DNA of 53,430 bases from a virus (taxonomy: Duplodnaviria; Caudoviricetes), in the IMG/VR virus record IMGVR_UViG_3300042312_000048, positions 1-53,430 of that record. One strand, written 5' to 3'. The position numbers and the translations under genes were made by a program. Below the pieces are notes generated by a model. It was given only the letters and a program-made list of their open reading frames with translations, was not told the DNA's origin and searched no databases. This document shows positions 1 to 32,810 of the stretch, piece by piece (the stretch's first letter is position 1; each line of letters opens with the position of its first letter).

Positions 1-3000
1 AAGTCCAGTTAATGTTCCTAAACTTGTTACGTTTGGTTGAGCCGCAGTAGTTAGTGTACCTGTTAATAGAGTACCGCTTACGTTTCCTGCGCTAACATTA
101 CCTGTTACACTCAATGATGTTAGTGTGCCAACGCTAGTGATGTTAGGTTGAGCCGCAGTTGTTACAGTACCTGCTGTAGTTGCCGCACCTGTCAATGCAC
201 CAACGAATGTTGTTGAAGTTACACTAGTTAAACCTGCTACTGTAGTAACAGTGCTTCCTAATGTAAGTGCAGTGTTTCCTAAAGTTACACTTGCGTTTGC
301 TAATCTTGCTTGTGCTAATGTACCAGTTGAAATATTACTTGCGTTCAATGCAGTTAGAGCAGAACCATTACCAGTAAATACACCTGTGTTTGCAGTAAAT
401 GCTACTGCCGTCACTGTGCCATTTACACCTAAGCCAGTTAGTGTACCAACTGAAGTAATATTAGGTTGTGCTGCTGTTGTTACAGTACCTGCAACTGTTG
501 CTGCTGGAACTGTACCTGTCACGTTAGCGCCAGTAATTGATGCTAGATTTGCACCTGACAAGCCTGCTGCGAATGTTGCGCTTGAACCTACTAGGCTGTT
601 CCAAGTACCAGTTGTTACTGTACCCAATGCTGTAACTTGTGTCTGTGAAGCATTTACGCTAAATGTTAGATTAGAAAGAGTTAAGCCGGTGCCTGCAAGA
701 TAAACTTGTGAACTACTGAACTGAGCGAATTCAATATTAGAAGTACCGAATGTGATTGTTCCAGTAGGAGCATCAAGAACATATGCACTACCTTTGTTGA
801 CACTACCACCGCTTACAAAGAAGTAATTGTTGAGACTCAATTCATCGGCACCAGGACCGTATGAATCAGCATCAGTTGCACGGGTGATAACTGTCGTGCT
901 TGTGTAAGTATAGACACCGTTATGCGCGGCGTTTGCTTCGTTCTTGACTAATATACGAGTACCAACTGTTTGAACGTTTGCTGTATCAATCAAGTTGAAT
1001 GTACCAGTAGTTGTCAATGTTGCACCAACACCTGCTGTACCGTTGTTATAAGTGATTGTTCCGCCAGTAGCACTAGCCAATGTACCAGTTGTGGCTGCTA
1101 TTACACCTTCGTGGTATACAAGAGCAGTACTTGCTAAATCATCAACATATTGCTTAGTTGCCGCGTCAGTACTTGCTACCGGAGTTGCAAGGTTAATAAT
1201 ATTGTTGCTGGTCATATCTAGATTACCAGCAATACTGCTTACACCTGTACCAGTTACACTTAGTACACCTGTAGTTGTTAAGTTACCTGCCGCAACGTTT
1301 GCTGTTACTGCTAGTGAACTTAGTGTACCAACACTTGTAATATTTGGCTGAGCGTTAGTATAAACTGTACTTGCAACAAGAGCATTGCCTACTTGACCAG
1401 TTACATTGCCACCTGCTAGTTGTGATAAACCACTACCATTGCCTGTGAATACACCTGTATTTGCTGTGATATTGGCAGCAGTGATATTGCCATTTACACC
1501 GAGACCTGTTAGCGTACCAAGACTTGTTACGTTAGGCTGTGCGGCAGTTGTCAATGTGCCAGTTAATAAACTTGCACCTATCGTGCCGCTGTTTGCGTAT
1601 ACATTACCAAATGTACCATTACCTGTTACTGCTACAGATGTTAGAGTGCCTAATGATGTAATATTTGGCTGTGCTGCATCATTGACAGTATTTGCTACGT
1701 TGCTTGTTGCAGCACGTAAATTTGCTACCACTGTGGTTGATGAAACTACTAATGGAGCAGTGCCGGTTGATACGTTTGATATTAACTGTGGGGCAGTTAC
1801 GTTAGCACTTGCTAGTACTTGAGCAGTACCAAGATTGCCAACATTAGCATTACCTGTCGCATTTAATGTTCCTGCTACATTTACGCCTGTGCTTGTGATT
1901 ACTAATTCATTTGGCGTACCAGTCGCAGAAATGTTTATATTGCCGTTAGCAGTAATACTAATATTACTATTACCGTTCTGTAACAATCCGCTATTGATCG
2001 TAGTGATATTACCGGTAGTGATTATGGCAGTTGCCGCGCCGATATTACCTACGTTTGCATTGCCTGTAGCATTCAAAGTACCTGCAATATTTGCGCCTGT
2101 AGTTGTTACAACTAATACATTAGCAGTGCCGCCTACATCAAAATTGATGTTACCGTTTGCTGCAGGAATTGATATATCTGAATTTCCGTTGGCTAGATTG
2201 CCTACAAAATTTGCTGCTGTAACATTGCCTGTCACTGCTAGGCTGACTAATGTACCAACTGAAGTTATATTTGGTTGTGCAGCAGTATATACGGTGCCTG
2301 CTACTAATGCGTTTGCTACTTGACCAGTGACGTTACCACCTGCAATCGCGCTTAAACCACTGCCGTTACCAGTAAACACGCCTGTGTTTGCCGTGATATT
2401 AACAGCATCAATGTTGCCGTTTACACCAAGACCAGTCAATGTGCCTACTGATGTGATATTTGGTTGTGCTGCTGTATAGACAGTACCTGCGACAAGGGCA
2501 TTTGCTACTTGACCAGTGACGTTACCACCGGTTATTGAACTTAGTGCTGAACCATTACCGCTTACATTTGTGAATGCACCGCTTGTTGCACTAACATTAC
2601 CTGCACTTACGTTACCTGTAACTGTTAATGATGACAATGTGCCTACACTAGTAATATTTGGTTGAGCCGCAGTTGTTAGTGTACCACCTAATGTAGTACC
2701 GCTGATGCCAGTTGCGCTGACATTGCCTGCACTTACGTTACCTGTAACTGCTAAACTTGTTAGTGTACCGACTGAAGTGATGTTAGGCTGTGCGGCTGTT
2801 GCTAATGTGCCTGTCAATAACGTACCGCTTAGATTACCTGCGCTGACATTACCTGTTACAGTAAGTGCTGATAGTGTACCGACTGAAGTGATATTAGGTT
2901 GTGCCGCTGTTGTCAATGTACCGGTTAATAGACTTGCTCCAACTGTACCGCTGTTCGCATAGACATTACCTGCTGTTGCATTACCTGTTACTGCTAGGCT

Positions 3001-5004
3001 TGATAATGTGCCAACACTTGTGATATTTGGTTGTGCGTTTGTATAAACTGTTCCAGCAACTAATGCGTTGCCTACTTGACCAGTTACATTAGCGCCGCCT
3101 AGTGCTGATAAGCCACTACCATTACCTGTAAATACGCCAGTATTTGCTGTGATATTGACAGCAGCAATGTTGCCATTTACACCAAGACCAGTCAATGTGC
3201 CTACTGATGTGATGTTTGGCTGTGCTGCTGTGACTACTGTACCGGCAGTTGTAGCGTTACCGCTAAGATTTGCTGTTACGATATTTGCGCTAAAGCTACC
3301 GTCTGCGTTACGAACAACTACAGTATTTGCTGTGGCTGCTGTTGCTGTGTCATAGCCATCCAATAAATCTGCGTTTAAATTTGTTACCTTAGTAGTTGAT
3401 GCCACAGTCAATGGAGCAGTACCAGTTGCTACGTTTGATTCTAATGTTGAAGCAACTACTTTGCCTGCTGTATTAACATTACCTGCGCTTGCATTACCAC
3501 TTACAGCAAGTGATGATAACGTGCCTAGGCTAGTAATGTTTGGTTGTGCTGCTGTATAAACTGTGCCGGCTACTAATGCATTTGCTACTTGACCACTAAT
3601 ATTACCTGAAGGAATATTTGTCAATCCTGCTGCATTACCGAAATATACGCCGGCGCGCAAGTTACCATATGTTGAGAAAGTAACTACTTCGTTTGTTATG
3701 CTTGCTTGACTTGCTAGACCGAACTCTGCGTTGCTGACATCCCAGCCCATAAACGCAATTTGTGCCTGACTGTCATAATAATTTAGAGCAGAACCTACGT
3801 CTTTACCGCTGTTACTTGTTGGTGCTGCACCGTTTGGTCCTGTTTGTAACTGAATGATTGGATCTTCTACAGAGAATGTTTCCACGTTTACATAGACAAG
3901 ATTGCCATCTACTGTTAAGTTACCTGTGATGATTGCGTTACCACTTACTGATAGATTACCGCCTGTAGATAAATTGCCTGCGCTTGCATTTCCAGTTACA
4001 GTAAGTGAACTTAATGTACCTACTGATGTTATATTTGGTTGTGCATTAGTTGTCAATGTGCCAGTTAGTAAACTTGCACCGATTGTGCCACTATTTGCAT
4101 ATACATTACCACCGGTAATATTACCTGTAACTGCTACAGCAGTTAATGTACCTAATGATGTAATATTTGGCTGTGCTGCGTCTGCTACAGTATTTGCCAC
4201 ATTGCTAGTGGCTGCACGTAAATTAGCAACTACAGTTGTTGAAGTAACAACTAAAGGTGCTGTCCCTGTTGAAACATTTGAAATAAGTTGTGGTGCAGTT
4301 ACGTTAGCACTTGCTAGTACTTGTGCAGTACCAAGATTACCAACATTAGCATTACCAGTTACAGTTAAACCTGTTAGAGAACCAACACTAGTGATATTTG
4401 GTTGGGCAGCAGTATAAACTGTACCGGCAACTAATGCATTAGCAACTTGACCAGTGATGTTGCCTGCTGTAACATTACTAATGTTTCCACCTTCACCTTT
4501 GAGTGTTTGCGCGCCTATAGTACCAGTATTTGCCCATACATTACCTGATGTAATATGTGTTGTGGCGTTAAGATTATTGGCATCTAGATTTGCACTAACT
4601 GTAACTAAATTACTTGACTTGTTGAAAGTGAATGCTGCTGAACCACCGAATGATTCATCATCATTGAATTGAATTTGAGTGTTGCTACCACCTGGGTCAC
4701 TTAGATCCCAAGGTACGCCGTTTGAATATAGTAGGTTATCTGTTTTGACGTTGCCTGCTGCGATATTACCGCTTACTGTTAGAATGTTATTGTTGAAATC
4801 GTATGTGAATGCTGCTTCACCTGTTAAAGCAGTACCATTTATAAAGACTACTTGTGCGTTAGATGCGGCTACTGTTGGAAAATTTTCAACATTTCCATCA
4901 CTAGTTTTGACACTCAACGTGTCACTATCATCTAAGAAAATAGTACCTTTACCGGCTGGGGGTGTTGGTACTGTGTTCGCTGCGTTCTGTTTTAAAATTA
5001 GCAT
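1..5004 (-). CDS. Very large fibre-like virion structural protein (>1668 aa, truncated at window edge; missing from ORF track)
   Basis: ATG at 5004 with AGGAG at 5018-5014; begins MLILKQNAANTVPTPPAGKGTIFLDD; same frame reads AAQPNVTSLGTLTGL at positions 45-1; many TxAQPNITSVGTL repeats, NADLLDG motif, modules shared with neighbouring genes. Frame checked at both ends, not codon by codon. Confidence 0.88.
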   Translation of the reverse strand, partial: MLILKQNAANTVPTPPAGKGTIFLDDSDTLSVKTSDGNVENFPTVAASNAQVVFINGTALTGEAAFTYDFNNNILTVSGNIAAGNVKTDNLLYSNGVPWDLSDPGGSNTQIQFNDDESFGGSAAFTFNKSSNLVTVSANLDANNLNATTHITSGNVWANTGTIGAQTLKGEGGNISNVTAGNITGQVANALVAGTVYTAAQPNITSVGSLTGLTVTGNANVGNLGTAQVLASANVTAPQLISNVSTGTAPLVVTSTTVVANLRAATSNVANTVADAAQPNITSLGTLTAVAVTGNITGGNVYANSGTIGASLLTGTLTTNAQPNITSVGTLSSLTVTGNASAGNLSTGGNLSVSGNAIITGNLTVDGNLVYVNVETFSVEDPIIQLQTGPNGAAPTSNSGKDVGSALNYYDSQAQIAFMGWDVSNAEFGLASQASITNEVVTFSTYGNLRAGVYFGNAAGLTNIPSGNISGQVANALVAGTVYTAAQPNITSLGTLSSLAVSGNASAGNVNTAGKVVASTLESNVATGTAPLTVASTTKVTNLNADLLDGYDTATAATANTVVVRNADGSFSANIVTANLSGNATTAGTVVTAAQPNITSVGTLTGLGVNGNIAAVNITANTGVFTGNGSGLSALGGANVTGQVGNALVAGTVYTNAQPNITSVGTLSSLAVTGNATAGNVYANSGTVGASLLTGTLTTAAQPNITSVGTLSALTVTGNVSAGNLSGTLLTGTLATAAQPNITSVGTLTSLAVTGNVSAGNVSATGISGTTLGGTLTTAAQPNITSVGTLSSLTVTGNVSAGNVSATSGAFTNVSGNGSALSSITGGNVTGQVANALVAGTVYTAAQPNITSVGTLTGLGVNGNIDAVNITANTGVFTGNGSGLSAIAGGNVTGQVANALVAGTVYTAAQPNITSVGTLVSLAVTGNVTAANFVGNLANGNSDISIPAANGNINFDVGGTANVLVVTTTGANIAGTLNATGNANVGNIGAATAIITTGNITTINSGLLQNGNSNISITANGNINISATGTPNELVITSTGVNVAGTLNATGNANVGNLGTAQVLASANVTAPQLISNVSTGTAPLVVSSTTVVANLRAATSNVANTVNDAAQPNITSLGTLTSVAVTGNGTFGNVYANSGTIGASLLTGTLTTAAQPNVTSLGTLTGLGVNGNITAANITANTGVFTGNGSGLSQLAGGNVTGQVGNALVASTVYTNAQPNITSVGTLSSLAVTANVAAGNLTTTGVLSVTGTGVSSIAGNLDMTSNNIINLATPVASTDAATKQYVDDLASTALVYHEGVIAATTGTLASATGGTITYNNGTAGVGATLTTTGTFNLIDTANVQTVGTRILVKNEANAAHNGVYTYTSTTVITRATDADSYGPGADELSLNNYFFVSGGSVNKGSAYVLDAPTGTITFGTSNIEFAQFSSSQVYLAGTGLTLSNLTFSVNASQTQVTALGTVTTGTWNSLVGSSATFAAGLSGANLASITGANVTGTVPAATVAGTVTTAAQPNITSVGTLTGLGVNGTVTAVAFTANTGVFTGNGSALTALNASNISTGTLAQARLANASVTLGNTALTLGSTVTTVAGLTSVTSTTFVGALTGAATTAGTVTTAAQPNITSVGTLTSLSVTGNVSAGNVSGTLLTGTLTTAAQPNVTSLGTLTGL

Positions 5005-29009: not shown

Positions 29010-29032
29010 TATAAATAACTCTACTATTTATA
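29010..29032. promoter_or_regulatory. Palindromic pair of late promoters TATAAATA-N7-TATTTATA
   Basis: Exact consensus on + (29010-29017) and on - (29032-29025) between divergent tape measure and gp26-like genes. Confidence 0.8.
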
Positions 29033-29064: not shown

Positions 29065-29886
29065 ATGGATAATCCACTACGTCAACATTTTAGAAGACCA
29101 GCCGTTTATATCAAATTACCCAGCGCAGGAGTAGGATATACACAGGATGTCATTGACATGCCCAGTAACGGTGAGTTGCCGGTTTATCCTATGACCGCAT
29201 TAGATGAAATTGCATTACGCACACCTGACGCACTGTTTAATGGTGTTGCTGTTGCTGATGTAATCAAGAGTTGCGTACCTGCGATTAAAAACCCTATGCA
29301 ACTCATGGTAAGCGACTTAGATGCTATATTGATTGGTATCAGAAGCGCAGGTGGTCAAGATACTGTTGATATAACAACAGTTTGCCCCGGTTGTCAAAAT
29401 GAAGCAACATATGGTGTAAATCTGATGTCAATATTATCTACGATGAAGTTAGGTAATTATAATGAACCATTAAAACTTGATACGTTAGAAATTAAATTTA
29501 GACCAGTAACCTATATGCAGATGACAAATGCTGCTATTGGTCAGTTTGATTTACAAAAAGTTTTTAACCGTATTGAAAATATTCAAGACGAAAAAGAAAA
29601 AAGAGAAGCAACTCAAGAAGCAATCAAAATGGTAACAACGTTGACTATGAAAGTGATTAGCCAGTCAATTGAATTTGTTAGAACTCCTGAGGCTGTAGTC
29701 ACTGATACTGATCATATTAGCGAATTTCTAGAACATTGTGATGCTAATACCTATAATAAAATCAAAGACTATAACGCAAAATTAAAAGAAAGCACCGAAA
29801 TCAAACCGTTAAACATCACATGTACCGGATGTAATAAAGATTACAAACAACCCTTCACATTAAATTCATCCGATTTTTTCGGATGA
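29065..29886 (+). CDS. gp26: Baseplate hub assembly / tail assembly chaperone, gp26-like
   Basis: I.LPS, YPMTA.DE, D.DAIL..IR, two CxxC (CPGC, CTGC), terminal DFF; SD GAGG. Confidence 0.8.
   Translation: MDNPLRQHFRRPAVYIKLPSAGVGYTQDVIDMPSNGELPVYPMTALDEIALRTPDALFNGVAVADVIKSCVPAIKNPMQLMVSDLDAILIGIRSAGGQDTVDITTVCPGCQNEATYGVNLMSILSTMKLGNYNEPLKLDTLEIKFRPVTYMQMTNAAIGQFDLQKVFNRIENIQDEKEKREATQEAIKMVTTLTMKVISQSIEFVRTPEAVVTDTDHISEFLEHCDANTYNKIKDYNAKLKESTEIKPLNITCTGCNKDYKQPFTLNSSDFFG
29874..29880 (+). other. Candidate -1 ribosomal frameshift heptamer T TTT TTC
   Basis: X XXY YYZ register in gp26 frame (GAT TTT TTC GGA TGA); -1 frame continues CGG ATG into the next ORF; stem-loop follows. Confidence 0.65.
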
Positions 29887-30110
29887 CGCTTCTGGCTTCT
29901 TCCCCTGCAGAAGTCACGAAGTTAATCACAGATATGGAGAATGAAGTTAGGGGTATCAAAGAAGCAGCATTAGCCATGGCTTGGCATCTACGCGGAGGTG
30001 CCACATATGAAGATATATTGAATATGTCTGTCGACGAACGTAAAGCAATCAACAAAATTATTGAAGCACATATGGAAACAACTAAGAAGACCGGACTTAA
30101 TTATTTTTAA
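29883..30110 (+). CDS. gp51: gp51-like tail/baseplate assembly chaperone domain (possibly made as a frameshift fusion)
   Basis: W..RGG.TYEDI.NMS..ER..I pattern; in -1 frame relative to gp26; no SD. Confidence 0.7.
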   Translation: MTLLASSPAEVTKLITDMENEVRGIKEAALAMAWHLRGGATYEDILNMSVDERKAINKIIEAHMETTKKTGLNYF

Positions 30111-30155
30111 GTTGTCCTTCGGACAACACTTCACTCGCTATCGCTCGTTCAGTAT
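30111..30155 (-). other. Two strand-specific ssDNA-type hairpins (GAA triloop; tandem G-A mismatch stem), primosome-assembly-site-like
   Basis: Minus strand: ACT GA AC GA GC GATA GC GA GT GA AGT, then GTTGTCC GAA GGACAAC. Confidence 0.6.
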
Positions 30156-30179
30156 TTTAATTTTATAAGGATTTAGATT

Positions 30180-30518
30180 ATTTGCCGCTTTGAATCCATG
30201 GTAGTGCTATCACAGCACTACCATAAGTTGGATTTGCCTGCCCATCACCCATGTCGTTTGTTCCAATATATCTAGCCTGTTGTGCTGATACATCCTACCG
30301 GTTATACTGTAAAGTTTATGGACTGTAGTTGTAGACTCTCATCTACTATAACGCATGTTACATATCCGCAAAACGAAATAAGATATGTACTCATCGTGGG
30401 TTCGCAAACCTGTCGATTGCCCACTCGGTATGCGACACATATATAATGTGTCTTTACTCCAGATCCGCAGGTAACTAGTGTACTAGACTTGCTCAAGGAG
30501 AGCAGAGCATCCTCTGCC
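30180..30518 (-). ncRNA. Candidate ~340 nt structured non-coding RNA, family not recognised
   Basis: At least eight stems seen by eye, including 11 bp 30198-30208/30214-30224, 8 bp 30359-30366/30382-30389, 7 bp 30434-30440/30446-30452, 6 bp 30502-30507/30512-30517; G-U pairs favour minus strand; 3' end uncertain. Confidence 0.65.
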
Positions 30519-30524
30519 AAACAA

Positions 30525-30551
30525 ATTTTAGATTGTTGTAGAAATTGTCAA
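30525..30551 (-). promoter_or_regulatory. Candidate sigma70-type promoter TTGACA-N15-TAAAAT for the structured RNA
   Basis: -35 at 30551-30546, -10 at 30530-30525; predicted +1 is G30518, the first base of the first hairpin; 15-nt spacer is suboptimal. Confidence 0.5.
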
Positions 30552-31085
30552 AGTTTTAGTTGACGTGGTGTCTGGTGAGTTTGAAGAATATACTTTTAAT
30601 AAATCTGAGTTTAAATTGAAAAAATGGTTGAATTCTATGATTAGCCAGTCTTTATGCTTTTTACTTGTGTAATATAAAAATTGATCAGTAATCCATGTTA
30701 ATTTAGTTTGTACGCAAACAAAACTGCCCTTTCTGTTAAATTTCATAAACAAAATGTTTAAATCATTTTCGTCGCTAACTTCCATCATTTGATCTAACCA
30801 ACTATCTAATACTTTACAATCTCCTGTTAATACAAGATGAAATGGAAAATCAGCGTATGACTTGCATTCTGCGTTAAATCTAGGAAAACTTTGTCCAGGA
30901 ACTATATCACCTTTGAAACTGCGTATCTGTCCCTCATGTAAGATTTGTGTCCTTACTTTATTTTTTCCGCCTACGTATGCACCGCTGCCCGGCGCACGTA
31001 TAAAACTCTCATTGTATTTTTCACTTAAAAATCTAGCGACTTCACGTTCCCAACTAGACCCTTTTTGTTTCTGTGGACTTGGCAT
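30528..31085 (-). CDS. Holliday junction resolvase-like nuclease, Hjc/PD-(D/E)XK family
   Basis: K.KG..WEREVA..L, R.PGSG, GDI, ECK motifs; downstream of gp47/gp46. Confidence 0.8.
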   Translation of the reverse strand: MPSPQKQKGSSWEREVARFLSEKYNESFIRAPGSGAYVGGKNKVRTQILHEGQIRSFKGDIVPGQSFPRFNAECKSYADFPFHLVLTGDCKVLDSWLDQMMEVSDENDLNILFMKFNRKGSFVCVQTKLTWITDQFLYYTSKKHKDWLIIEFNHFFNLNSDLLKVYSSNSPDTTSTKTLTISTTI

Positions 31086-31107: not shown

Positions 31108-32211
31108 TTAATTCGTTAAAAATCCTACAGCATAGGGTTCATCTACAAGAGAACTGTGACACTTGTGTTCACATTCTACCCATGCCTTTTTTGTATCATC
31201 AAAACTATTAAAGAGGTATTTCCAAACATCATCATTTAAAACTTCTTCTAATGATTTTGTTTTAATACAAACTTTATCTCTGTATACTTGATGAAAACTA
31301 TCTTTCCAATAAATTCTTTTACGCTCAGTTTCGTTATAGTCATAGGGAAAACTTACCCAACTGCATGGGTGTAGTACTCCATCAGCACTTACATATAAAC
31401 CGCGATTACCTATACTACACATAGGAGTTATAAATTTATTATGCTTACTTGACACTTCTTTATATAAATCATAATTTTTTTGCAGGTATGAATCGTTGTT
31501 TTGTTTTCTACCTGTGATATCTTTAAAATATCTTTCGTACCTATGTGTCTTGCTAATGAATTCGGCTCTAGGTTCTAATGGATCAGTATTACCACCGAAC
31601 GACTCGCCATACTTACTACCGAATTTCGTGCTATAAGTTAGTTGTAATCCGTCGCAACCCTTTTCTTTTGCTAGATTATAGATAGTATCTAAATGGTCTT
31701 GATTAAACGAAAATACAATAGTTGCCCAATAAACGAATGCAGGGCTTTCCTTACACATGATTTCCATACCAGTCATTATAGATTCCCAATCATTGTTGAC
31801 TCTGTATAGATCGTTAGATTTTTCATCATACCCATCTATACTAAAGTTTATGGTATCATACTCATTTGATAGTTTTGCGAATTTTCGCCACCAGTCTGGT
31901 TTTTTGTAACTTCCATTTGTTATAGTATAGATATGAATCTTTTCGTTATGACTTTTGATATACTCAATAATTTCAAGGTACTGTGAAGCATAAATCGGAT
32001 CTCCGATATCACCGCACATTGTGATTCTCTTTACTTCATTCTTAAGTAAGTCAGGAGTTAATGTATTCTCAAAAAACTTTAAATCAAGTTCATGATTAAA
32101 CCACGGTACACGATCTGTGTCATTTCTAGGACATCTAGGACATTGTAGCGTACATTTGCCGCTTACTTCAAAATGCCAATGATATAATTGCCATGGATAT
32201 TTTAAGTTCAT
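31108..32211 (-). CDS. Radical SAM enzyme with SPASM/twitch-like C-terminal cysteines
   Basis: CTLQCPRC (CxxxCxxC), GDP, TNG, FSIDG, C..G...YVSADG.LHPC, terminal CEHKC. Confidence 0.92.
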   Translation of the reverse strand: MNLKYPWQLYHWHFEVSGKCTLQCPRCPRNDTDRVPWFNHELDLKFFENTLTPDLLKNEVKRITMCGDIGDPIYASQYLEIIEYIKSHNEKIHIYTITNGSYKKPDWWRKFAKLSNEYDTINFSIDGYDEKSNDLYRVNNDWESIMTGMEIMCKESPAFVYWATIVFSFNQDHLDTIYNLAKEKGCDGLQLTYSTKFGSKYGESFGGNTDPLEPRAEFISKTHRYERYFKDITGRKQNNDSYLQKNYDLYKEVSSKHNKFITPMCSIGNRGLYVSADGVLHPCSWVSFPYDYNETERKRIYWKDSFHQVYRDKVCIKTKSLEEVLNDDVWKYLFNSFDDTKKAWVECEHKCHSSLVDEPYAVGFLTN

Positions 32212-32810
32212 GGACTTATCTCAATAAATTTTATATTGTCATCAAATAAGATTTTGATGATTTGTCCTGCAACATATTTGGCTGTTAGATGTTTATTTTG
32301 ATAAATGTCCTGATATCTTTCAGTATCATTTTTATATCTGTTTTTATTAAAATTTGTTTTAGTAAGACCTACACGAACCTCTAAAGTCCTTATATTAGGA
32401 TACTCTATTTGAAGCATACTATTAAAGTCTGACAATGATTTTTTAGTTAAACTATAAGTTAAATTATTAGGGTAATATCTTTTATTATTAGTGCTAGTAA
32501 TATTAACAATCTTACAATTTGAATTTTGTTTTAATACTTTTTGTGTCAGTAAGACAGGAGATAATAAGTTGGTATTTAAAATAGAAACGACATTATTTGG
32601 ATCATGGTTATCAAAAATTATCTTACCGCCTATATCTGTACCGGCCATGTTAATTAGTATATCAACCTCGGGCATGTCAAATTCTATAACGTCTTGTATA
32701 TTAGATAAGTCTAAAATATCCCGGGTGAGCGGTATAATCTCAAACTTGTCAAGACTATTGGTTAATTCTTTTCCAATACCGCTATTGGCACCCGTTATTG
32801 CTATTTTCAT
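32208..32810 (-). CDS. Short-chain dehydrogenase/reductase (SDR)
   Basis: TGANSGIG, INMAG, IVNITS, catalytic YSLTK. Confidence 0.92.
   Translation of the reverse strand: MKIAITGANSGIGKELTNSLDKFEIIPLTRDILDLSNIQDVIEFDMPEVDILINMAGTDIGGKIIFDNHDPNNVVSILNTNLLSPVLLTQKVLKQNSNCKIVNITSTNNKRYYPNNLTYSLTKKSLSDFNSMLQIEYPNIRTLEVRVGLTKTNFNKNRYKNDTERYQDIYQNKHLTAKYVAGQIIKILFDDNIKFIEISP

Follow-up and report, generated by a model that had tools for sequence, protein, structure and literature searches.

Which process is served by two compact hairpins that lie back to back at the sole convergent gene junction of a phage genome fragment? The fragment, designated the window in the following, is the whole stretch of 53,430 bp contained in IMG/VR record IMGVR_UViG_3300042312_000048, and the two elements, termed hairpin 1 (HP1) and hairpin 2 (HP2) and together the module, are located on its minus strand downstream of a long structured RNA and an AT-rich linker. 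In an initial annotation, this arrangement was interpreted as a candidate ColE1-like replication origin composed of a promoter, a primer RNA, an unwinding element and a loading site for helicase and primase. Comparison with related sequences indicates that the module is real, conserved, functional and unusual. Regarding its role, we tentatively favour the view, held at somewhat less than an even chance, that it is a non-canonical device that forms and protects the 3' end of a non-coding transcript.

The unit closed by the module consists of the following elements, given in the order of the minus strand:
30182-30525, minus strand: conserved structured non-coding RNA core of ~340 nucleotides (nt) with multi-helix junctions, located directly after a PDDEXK nuclease gene
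30154-30181, minus strand: AT-rich and A-rich linker between the RNA core and HP1, with 25 of 28 positions A or T and no G
30128-30153, minus strand: HP1, ACT-GA-AC-GA-GC-GATA-GC-GA-GT-GA-AGT
30111-30127, minus strand: HP2, GTTGTCC-GAA-GGACAAC, a 7-bp palindromic stem with a C-GAA-G triloop and the core CCGAAGG

HP1 is composed of 7 Watson-Crick pairs, two tandem G.A/A.G blocks of the sheared type and a GATA loop (30142-30139), and its core GCGATAGC matches the mini-hairpin pattern GCGNNAGC. Both this core and the CCGAAGG of HP2 have the two G-C pairs closing a G-N-A or G-N-N-A loop by which mini-hairpins were recognised, a CC-GG stem being accepted. HP2 directly adjoins HP1 on one side and the stop codon of the convergent open reading frame (ORF) on the other, in both cases without a spacer. 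Folding of the minus strand with ViennaRNA reproduces HP1 and HP2 exactly. The hairpins and the AT-rich tract had been described accurately in the initial annotation. The predicted energy of the minus strand is -15.8 kcal/mol as RNA (z -3.9, with 0/200 shuffles equally good) and -7.1 as DNA (z -3.1), whereas the plus-strand complement is weaker in both forms (-11.0 as RNA, -6.2 as DNA). The strand specificity claimed in the initial annotation is supported: the hairpins form on the same strand as the upstream structured RNA and not, or far less well, on its complement. Nearest-neighbour energies miss the stability of mini-hairpins, so that these values do not distinguish between RNA and DNA.

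The module is a single-copy element. A descriptor for HP1, which calls for helices with internal 5'-GA/3'-AG blocks capped by a G..A loop, has one match on the two strands of the window, which is HP1 itself, and on the minus strand HP2 is the sole stem of at least 6 bp that has a C-G..A-G loop. In 10 related contigs with lengths of 86-525 kb, one true copy of the module occurs per contig, and two of the single-copy relatives are 100% complete according to CheckV. The remaining matches of the core pattern in the ten contigs are isolated and without module context, one of them recurring at several contigs, and a reversed-pattern control gave 0-2 matches per strand. A dispersed repeat resembling repetitive extragenic palindromic elements was consequently rejected, in agreement with the expectation of the initial annotation that a single conserved copy would be found.

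For an analysis of conservation, relatives of the locus (lineage A) were collected by a scan with the PDDEXK protein, which gave 251 relatives, and the best 80 loci were kept. The strict descriptor finds HP1 in 70 of these 80 loci, 7 further loci carry a variant of HP1 in which either 1 nt is bulged out or the inner stem has 4 bp, and 3 stop short of the site; the module follows the RNA core in 77/77 loci that reach it. The conservation of the hairpins is far above chance. The outer stems of HP1 covary, with CG, TA or AT at position 1 and AT, GC or CG at position 2 (examples are GAAC/GTTC, GAAT/ATTC, GTAC/GTAC, GTCT/AGAC, GACC/GGTC, TACC/GGTA, and AC/GT against GT/AC), and the G.A blocks, the R-C/G-Y inner pairs and the G and A of the loop are constant. 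The G-A pattern, whose loss would have spoken against the initial annotation, is thus kept while the stems around it change. The form with two G.A blocks is present in 10/32 distinct contexts, and all 15 distinct tetraloops conform to G-N-Y-A.

HP2 shows the same behaviour in an RNAalifold alignment of 37 sequences: none of its 7 pairs is broken, no G.U pair occurs, and 5 of the 7 pairs have compensatory changes on both sides, each in 6 to 18 sequences. Stems found in the relatives include AGTTGTCC, AGACAAAC, AGATGAAC, AGATGTCC, AGTTGTTC, AGTTGTAC and AGACGAAC, with the C-GNA-G loop being kept. The triloops are mostly GAA, followed by GTA and GCA, and the tetraloops are GAAA, GTAA, GCAA, GCTA, GTTA and GCCA, with CCT, ACC, TTC and TTCA as rare exceptions. 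In two loci (L185 and L205), the loop of HP2 is inverted (TTC instead of GAA and TTCA instead of TGAA) and the stem is unchanged, as if the loop of the palindrome had been flipped. The linker, measured from the 3' hairpin of the core to HP1, varies in length from 32 to 82 nt (median 63) in the relatives and is not conserved in sequence; its mean A+T content is 70%, compared to about 63% for the region, and its mean A content is 47%.

The element upstream of the linker is itself a genuine structured RNA, as 41 of the 72 pairs predicted by RNAalifold from the 37 sequences have compensatory changes. It possesses an invariant 11-bp 3' hairpin (30224-30198), several invariant single-stranded stretches and invariant loops, and this non-coding stretch is kept at the DNA level across relatives down to ~66-70% identity. 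G.U pairs account for 67/2405 cells of the core helices compared to 0/259 cells of HP2, counted from the same alignment, and since these G.U pairs are held in the minus sense, the RNA shares the strand of the module. Rfam 15 has no match above the gathering score in the window, and a search of 29800-30700 at E values up to 10 gave chance-level matches only (pntA, snoU36a, RAGATH-33); likewise, the tRNA and tmRNA search found none. The ~340-nt phage RNA is new, richly covarying and without an Rfam family. The primer RNA of the initial annotation stands insofar as a long structured RNA does lie upstream on the same strand, but with 41 covarying pairs it looks like a complex functional RNA and not like a mere primer, and the promoter postulated for it was not identified in lineage A.

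The unit is present in RNA libraries. A metatranscriptome contig of 163 nt with 1 mismatch spans 30106-30268 and thereby the 3' hairpin of the core, the linker, HP1 and HP2, and a second metatranscriptome contig, derived from a relative, covers 30241-30435. As contigs at a depth of 3-4 can show neither ends nor absence, the gap at 29212-30105 and the stop at 30106 were not used as evidence.

The module also closes a second non-coding unit that has a different upstream part. A scan of IMG/VR with one HP1 variant gave at least 120 loci, most of which belong to the lineage-A family; of 29 matches outside it, 14 lie within ORFs of GC-rich contigs, which we attribute to chance, and ~15 are intergenic in other phages with GC contents of 0.27-0.57. 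Because ~12 matches are expected by chance, assuming a collection size of ~100 Gb, only the intergenic ones were counted. The clearest second context (lineage B) is provided by Kyanoviridae-like T4-like phages, in which uvsY, uvsW and two small ORFs are followed on the opposite strand by HP2, HP1, a short body and a promoter, and then by gp55. Among 60 distinct gp55-anchored loci, 11 have the complete order of a TTGACA-17/18-TATAAT promoter, 38-52 nt, HP1, HP2 and the stop codon of the convergent ORF. HP1 of lineage B has the form stem-GA-GC-GAA-GC-GA-stem, with the outer stems GTT/AAC, GAT/ATC, GTC/GAC, GGTC/GACC, TGTC/GACA and TAC/GTG, and GCGAAGC forms the core of both hairpins. The body or spacer has a GC content of ~46%, is G-poor and CA-rich, and is less conserved than the promoter or the hairpins; the units have no match in Rfam. 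Other relatives of lineage B, including the cultured phage S-CAM7, keep the promoter without the hairpins.

The promoter next to gp55 deserves a separate description. It is sigma-70-like and conserved in loci L243-L322 and in S-CAM7 (L241 4380-4545). It is located on the strand opposite to gp55, ~40-150 nt upstream of that gene, and reads in the other direction into the 3' end of the uvsY-uvsW operon. It is present both in loci with the module and in loci without it, and it often precedes the conserved word ...GATGATATGAATA.... In one lineage-B locus (L316, 1067-1124), 5.8 perfect iteron-like repeats of 10 nt lie just 3' of the promoter in place of HP1 and HP2. Elsewhere, an HP1-type match is located between topoisomerase II and ligase genes (L126). 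Three further loci carry multiple motifs: an array of tandem-GA motifs with runs of the GCGAA pentamer beside a gp26-like gene (L113, ~2990-3120), two identical tandem-GA copies 1.4 kb apart, each adjoining the same GC-rich hairpin (L103, 3866-3884 and 5292-5310), and two different tandem-GA hairpins adjacent to each other (L208).

The source of the window is an uncultured T4-like jumbo phage whose sequence is found in lake-water metagenomes. The fragment, 15% complete according to CheckV, encodes gp23, gp20, gp21, a gp26-like hub protein, gp55, gp46/47 and baseplate proteins. The genes that head toward the junction from either side are:
29065-29886, plus strand: gp26-like gene
29883-30110, plus strand: ORF of 75 amino acids (aa), the stop codon of which abuts HP2
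36563 down to 30528, minus strand: operon of gp55, gp47, gp46, a short-chain dehydrogenase (SDR) gene, a radical-SAM gene and the PDDEXK nuclease gene

Downstream of the minus-strand operon, 417 bases are non-coding. The convergent genes that adjoin the module in its various loci are unrelated to each other, so that the module is not part of a particular convergent gene, and a tie to one such gene was rejected. Searches of GenBank phages, near or distant, gave no DNA match to the locus; the nearest PDDEXK homologues (~43% identity) are found in the jumbo phages SCTP-2 and PA5oct, and SCTP-2 has no space for an RNA downstream of its homologue. The literature search found nothing specific on the hairpin motif or the upstream RNA. 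Within the operon, the radical-SAM and short-chain dehydrogenase genes (31108-32810, minus strand) are inserted between gp46 and the PDDEXK nuclease gene. A separate palindrome, TATAAATAG-TAGAG-TTATTTATA, lies at 29010-29032 between a divergent gene for a protein of 1151 aa and the gp26-like gene, and carries on both strands TATAAATA, which we take to be the T4 late-promoter word.

Which reading best accounts for these properties? According to the one favoured here, HP1 and HP2 would together form the 3' terminus of a non-coding transcription unit of the phage, with the transcript as their main target. Downstream of the structured RNA and the unstructured A-rich linker, this transcript would fold into two adjacent compact hairpins, with HP1 being stabilised by its tandem G.A pairs and its G..A-closed loop, and HP2 consisting of a 7-8-bp stem with a C-GNA-G loop. 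The 3' end would be set either by termination that is independent of a U tract or assisted by a factor, or by the halting of 3'-to-5' trimming, and the hairpins might guard the RNA against exonucleases and reduce transcription running on into the convergent late genes. Formation of the 3' end, its protection and any protein partner are what we infer; what the sequences show is the structure with its strand specificity, conservation, covariation and single copy, the place of the module at the end of two different non-coding units, and its occurrence in contigs from RNA libraries. As the module ends such units in both lineages, its orientation is always sense and its place always the far end of the unit, at a convergent boundary. 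The 41 covarying pairs and the invariant loops are typical of a functional RNA with a gene that needs a defined end. Since HP2 is truly palindromic and borders the convergent stop codon, it can cap the mRNA of that ORF too, and its avoidance of G.U pairs fits a hairpin obliged to pair in both convergent transcripts. The RNA-library contig that bridges the 3' hairpin of the core through HP2 and the more favourable RNA fold of the minus strand also argue for an action on RNA. The 3'-end reading explains the position of the module at least as well as the origin model does.

Several observations weigh against an RNA 3' end. No U tract is present 3' of HP2, the next bases being TTAAAAA (flanks: minus strand TTAAAAATAA, plus strand ACTTCACTCG), and a terminator consensus scan of the window does not call HP2. 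Classical bidirectional terminators consisting of an A tract, a GC-rich stem and a T tract are found at four convergent junctions of a 352-kb relative, and a 171-kb relative has AGCCCC-GAAA-GGGGCT followed by TTTTT; the lack of a U tract together with these canonical terminators means that the module is not the ordinary terminator of the clade. The metatranscriptome contigs cannot show a 3' end. Furthermore, the cores of the hairpins obey the rule for DNA mini-hairpins (C-G closure, and G..A with any bases between), the HP1 tetraloops are not of the RNA-type GNRA, and G.U pairs are avoided also in HP1, with 0/108 at the R-Y pair and at most 9/579 in the outer stems. The only annotated look-alikes of the motif are priming signals in single-stranded DNA (ssDNA), and we know of no RNA precedent for the tandem-GA motif. 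In a review, the melting temperature (Tm) of r(GCGAAAGC) is given as 39 C compared to 76.5 C for the DNA, and that of the GCGATAGC DNA mini-hairpin, the same as the core of HP1 in the window, as 71 C (PMC13037366).

The main rival is the model of the initial annotation, a DNA-level element of an R-loop origin, which we consider doubtful though far from negligible. Transcription would displace the non-template (minus) strand, which would fold into the very stable mini-hairpins HP1 and HP2; these would block re-annealing, stabilise the R-loop and present a fork-like structure poor in SSB, on which the phage gp59-gp41-gp61 proteins or the host PriA primosome would load for lagging-strand synthesis, as at ColE1 ssiA. 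The resemblance to ColE1 stated in the initial annotation is real. In ColE1 (NC_001371), the descriptor finds a single tandem-GA hairpin, CGAGCGTAGCGAG at 1331-1343 on the plus strand. The Rfam match for RNA I lies at 645-749 on the minus strand, RNA II is accordingly plus-sense, and the hairpin thus has the sense of RNA II; it follows the GGCGGAGCC motif (1179-1187) near the origin at a distance of ~135-145 nt. In a BLAST comparison covering at least 5000 plasmids, no part of the origin-distal region is shared more widely than the ~60 nt around the hairpin (1298-1368 in ColE1). In six ColE1-type plasmids, the loop is GTA, GCA, GGA or GTGA, the GCA form, which is the one given in the initial annotation, being present in two of them, the GA-GC...GC-GA framework is invariant, and in the most divergent plasmid the outer pair is flipped from C-G to G-C. 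The ssiA/n'-pas site of ColE1 recruits PriA on the displaced strand (PMC3167613, PMC3640518). A review names CCGAAGG, the core of HP2, as a mini-hairpin in RSF1010 ssiA, describes GCGNAGC/GCGNNAGC hairpins at the primase origins of G4, St-1 and alpha3 as binding SSB poorly, and reports d(GCGNAGC)/d(GCGNNAGC) mini-hairpins also in the promoters of the N4 virion RNA polymerase (PMC13037366). The absence of a U tract, the avoidance of G.U pairs and the G-N-Y-A loops, together with a single copy per genome that includes the two relatives complete by CheckV, agree with an origin as well.

Although specific, the ColE1 match came to light post hoc, which weighs against the origin model, and the assignment of the ColE1 hairpin to ssiA is provisional. 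The lack of the motif in T4, SCTP-2, S-CAM7 and Mosig also weighs against an origin. T4 has one match to the core pattern, which lies inside gene 67 with unpaired flanks and was taken as chance; SCTP-2 and Mosig have zero matches, S-CAM7 has three, a control-level frequency, of which the two checked lie in coding sequences, and the primer-RNA strand of T4 oriE has no G..A mini-hairpins of note. In phiX174, no convincing tandem-GA hairpin was seen; its only 4-pair C-GAA-G hairpin, CCCCGAAGGGG at 4331-4341, is separated by 25 nt from position 4306, where the viral-strand origin is annotated. T4 origins, to our knowledge, share no sequence motif and have no hairpin signal. T4-type gp59 loading is structure-specific, and we know of no sequence-specific site for it, which counts against the origin model. 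More generally, we know of no sequence signal for T4-type origins and of no established origins in uncultured jumbo phages.

The combination of a promoter and, within about 100 bp downstream, an AT-rich element, as expected for a T4 origin of the oriF/oriG type, is divided between the two lineages: the linker of lineage A is AT-rich and no adjoining promoter was identified, whereas lineage B has the promoter and a transcribed spacer of ~46% GC. The AT-rich unwinding tract of the initial annotation therefore holds for lineage A and not for lineage B, where the CA-rich, G-poor spacer offers no unwinding element and is unfavourable for a purine-rich RNA hybrid. T4 oriE has an early promoter plus iterons, and the promoter with its 5.8 iterons in one lineage-B locus recalls this arrangement. 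Set against this, the module is present in only 11/60 lineage-B loci, and the 340-nt RNA of lineage A is conserved far more elaborately than a primer requires.

The divergence of gene polarity, which the initial annotation broadly placed around 29-36.6 kb, and the GC-skew minimum do not fall on the module. In the window, where the module lies at 30.1 kb, genes change strand at 36.6 kb and the cumulative GC skew reaches its minimum at 37-39 kb. The corresponding positions in the 352-kb relative are 13.2 kb for the module, 18.9-19.1 kb for the switch and 15-20 kb for the skew minimum. A 524-kb relative carries the module at 346.3 kb and a switch at 341-342 kb, and it has a second skew minimum at the contig end. 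Switch and skew minimum thus do not coincide with the module; they lie 4-6.5 kb off, or 1-2% of the genome length, at the gp55/baseplate boundary. This proximity may be counted for an origin, as oriE, oriF and oriG of T4 are likewise placed near strand switches (PMC3016281). The switch falls, however, exactly at a divergent gene boundary. Given that the skew tracks the direction of the genes and that synteny is common to all three genomes, the proximity amounts to one weak observation. The 524,565-bp relative (G007, L329-L355) shows four long arms of gene orientation with matching GC-skew signs, which would give two divergence and two convergence points if the contig were circularised.

Of the origin model as first proposed, the hairpins, their strand, their conservation, the copy number and the likeness to ColE1 have stood, and the position of the skew switch, the promoter and the primer role of the RNA are so far unsupported. 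It has come through the comparison of copy number and conservation and has gained, as far as sequence motifs go, a link to ColE1 ssiA and RSF1010 ssiA. Its fullest form, a strand-asymmetric ssDNA device whose hairpins lock an R-loop and mimic a fork, representing the same kind of signal as ColE1 ssiA with the upstream RNA as an RNA II-like primer, we likewise regard as rather unlikely.

A less probable explanation, to which we give a small though real chance, treats the module as a protein-binding or RNA-docking handle, in which the G.A pairs and G..A loops would form a K-turn/loop-E-like recognition surface for particle assembly or targeting. The strict retention of the G.A pairs and of the loop G and A next to freely covarying Watson-Crick pairs would be understandable on this basis, as would the portability of the module between two unrelated upstream RNAs and the lack of a terminator-like U tract. 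However, no candidate partner gene travels along with the module and its neighbours differ, a K-turn-type asymmetric bulge is absent, the same motif is present in ColE1 plasmids, where no RNA role is known, and the constant contact of HP2 with the convergent stop codon would be left unexplained. Very improbable, finally, is that HP2, with HP1 as accessory, is an ordinary intrinsic bidirectional terminator: a palindromic hairpin exactly between convergent units, touching a stop codon and covarying without G.U, would suit one, but there is no T run on either side, HP2 escapes the consensus scan, the real terminators of the relatives have A/T tracts and GC-rich stems, the module occurs a single time although ~33 convergent junctions were counted in the 352-kb relative from crude gene calls, and the G.A design of HP1 would have no explanation.

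If the module acts on RNA, it would represent a new 3'-end module devoid of a U tract that phages attach to different non-coding RNAs, which would aid the annotation of phage non-coding RNA genes and might provide a compact RNA-stabilising element. If the origin reading were true, the module would give the T4 superfamily its first priming signal defined by sequence; as a conserved, single-copy, strand-specific motif common to the ColE1 ssiA region, it is a concrete and cheaply testable origin candidate. On either reading, the module marks the end of the new ~340-nt RNA.

Among known systems, the ssiA region of ColE1/pMB1 comes close to HP1 in having the same core, Y-GA-GC-G(N)1-2A-GC-GA-R, on the primer-RNA-sense strand downstream of a long structured RNA; both vary freely at the loop N and keep their G.A pairs invariant. 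Unlike the phage module, the ColE1 hairpin has a single G.A block and no neighbour of the HP2 type and lies ~135 nt from the origin, and dependence on PriA and Pol I is documented for the ColE1 plasmid only. In the window, no RNAI-like Rfam match, RNA I-like antisense regulator or Rop was seen.

We know of no mini-hairpin initiation site in T4-like phages. The mini-hairpins of ssDNA initiation sites share with the module the cores GCGATAGC, CCGAAGG and, in lineage B, GCGAAGC, as well as the G..A loop rule with any N; the known sites serve ssDNA phages and plasmids that have their own primases or polymerases. Many lineage-A relatives have a single G-C pair and A-T as the second (ACGAAGT, TCGAAGA), which according to the review weakens a mini-hairpin (PMC13037366). 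At the T4 origins oriF, oriG and oriE, a promoter drives a non-coding or antisense transcript, a stretch rich in A+T lies downstream, and a strand switch and a skew shift are close by, the displaced non-template strand being proposed as the primosome entry site (PMC3016281); the phage units share this layout in part, and that of lineage B lies in the uvsY-uvsW-gp55 neighbourhood. The module differs from T4 origins in that no MotA-type promoter was identified, T4 is without the motif and lineage B is without the AT-rich element.

With the 3' domains of bacterial and phage small RNAs, lineage B has in common that a strong promoter is followed by ~40 nt of unstructured body and then by two hairpins at the 3' end, and it differs from them in a body that is less conserved than promoter and hairpins, in having no U tail and in belonging to no Rfam family. 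Finally, whereas intrinsic terminators have a U/A tract, the module is without one, has AT-rich stems and carries an attached strand-specific G.A hairpin; with bidirectional terminators and 3' stabiliser hairpins it shares the site at a convergent boundary, at the 3' end of a transcription unit, and a palindrome, HP2, that is usable in both transcripts.

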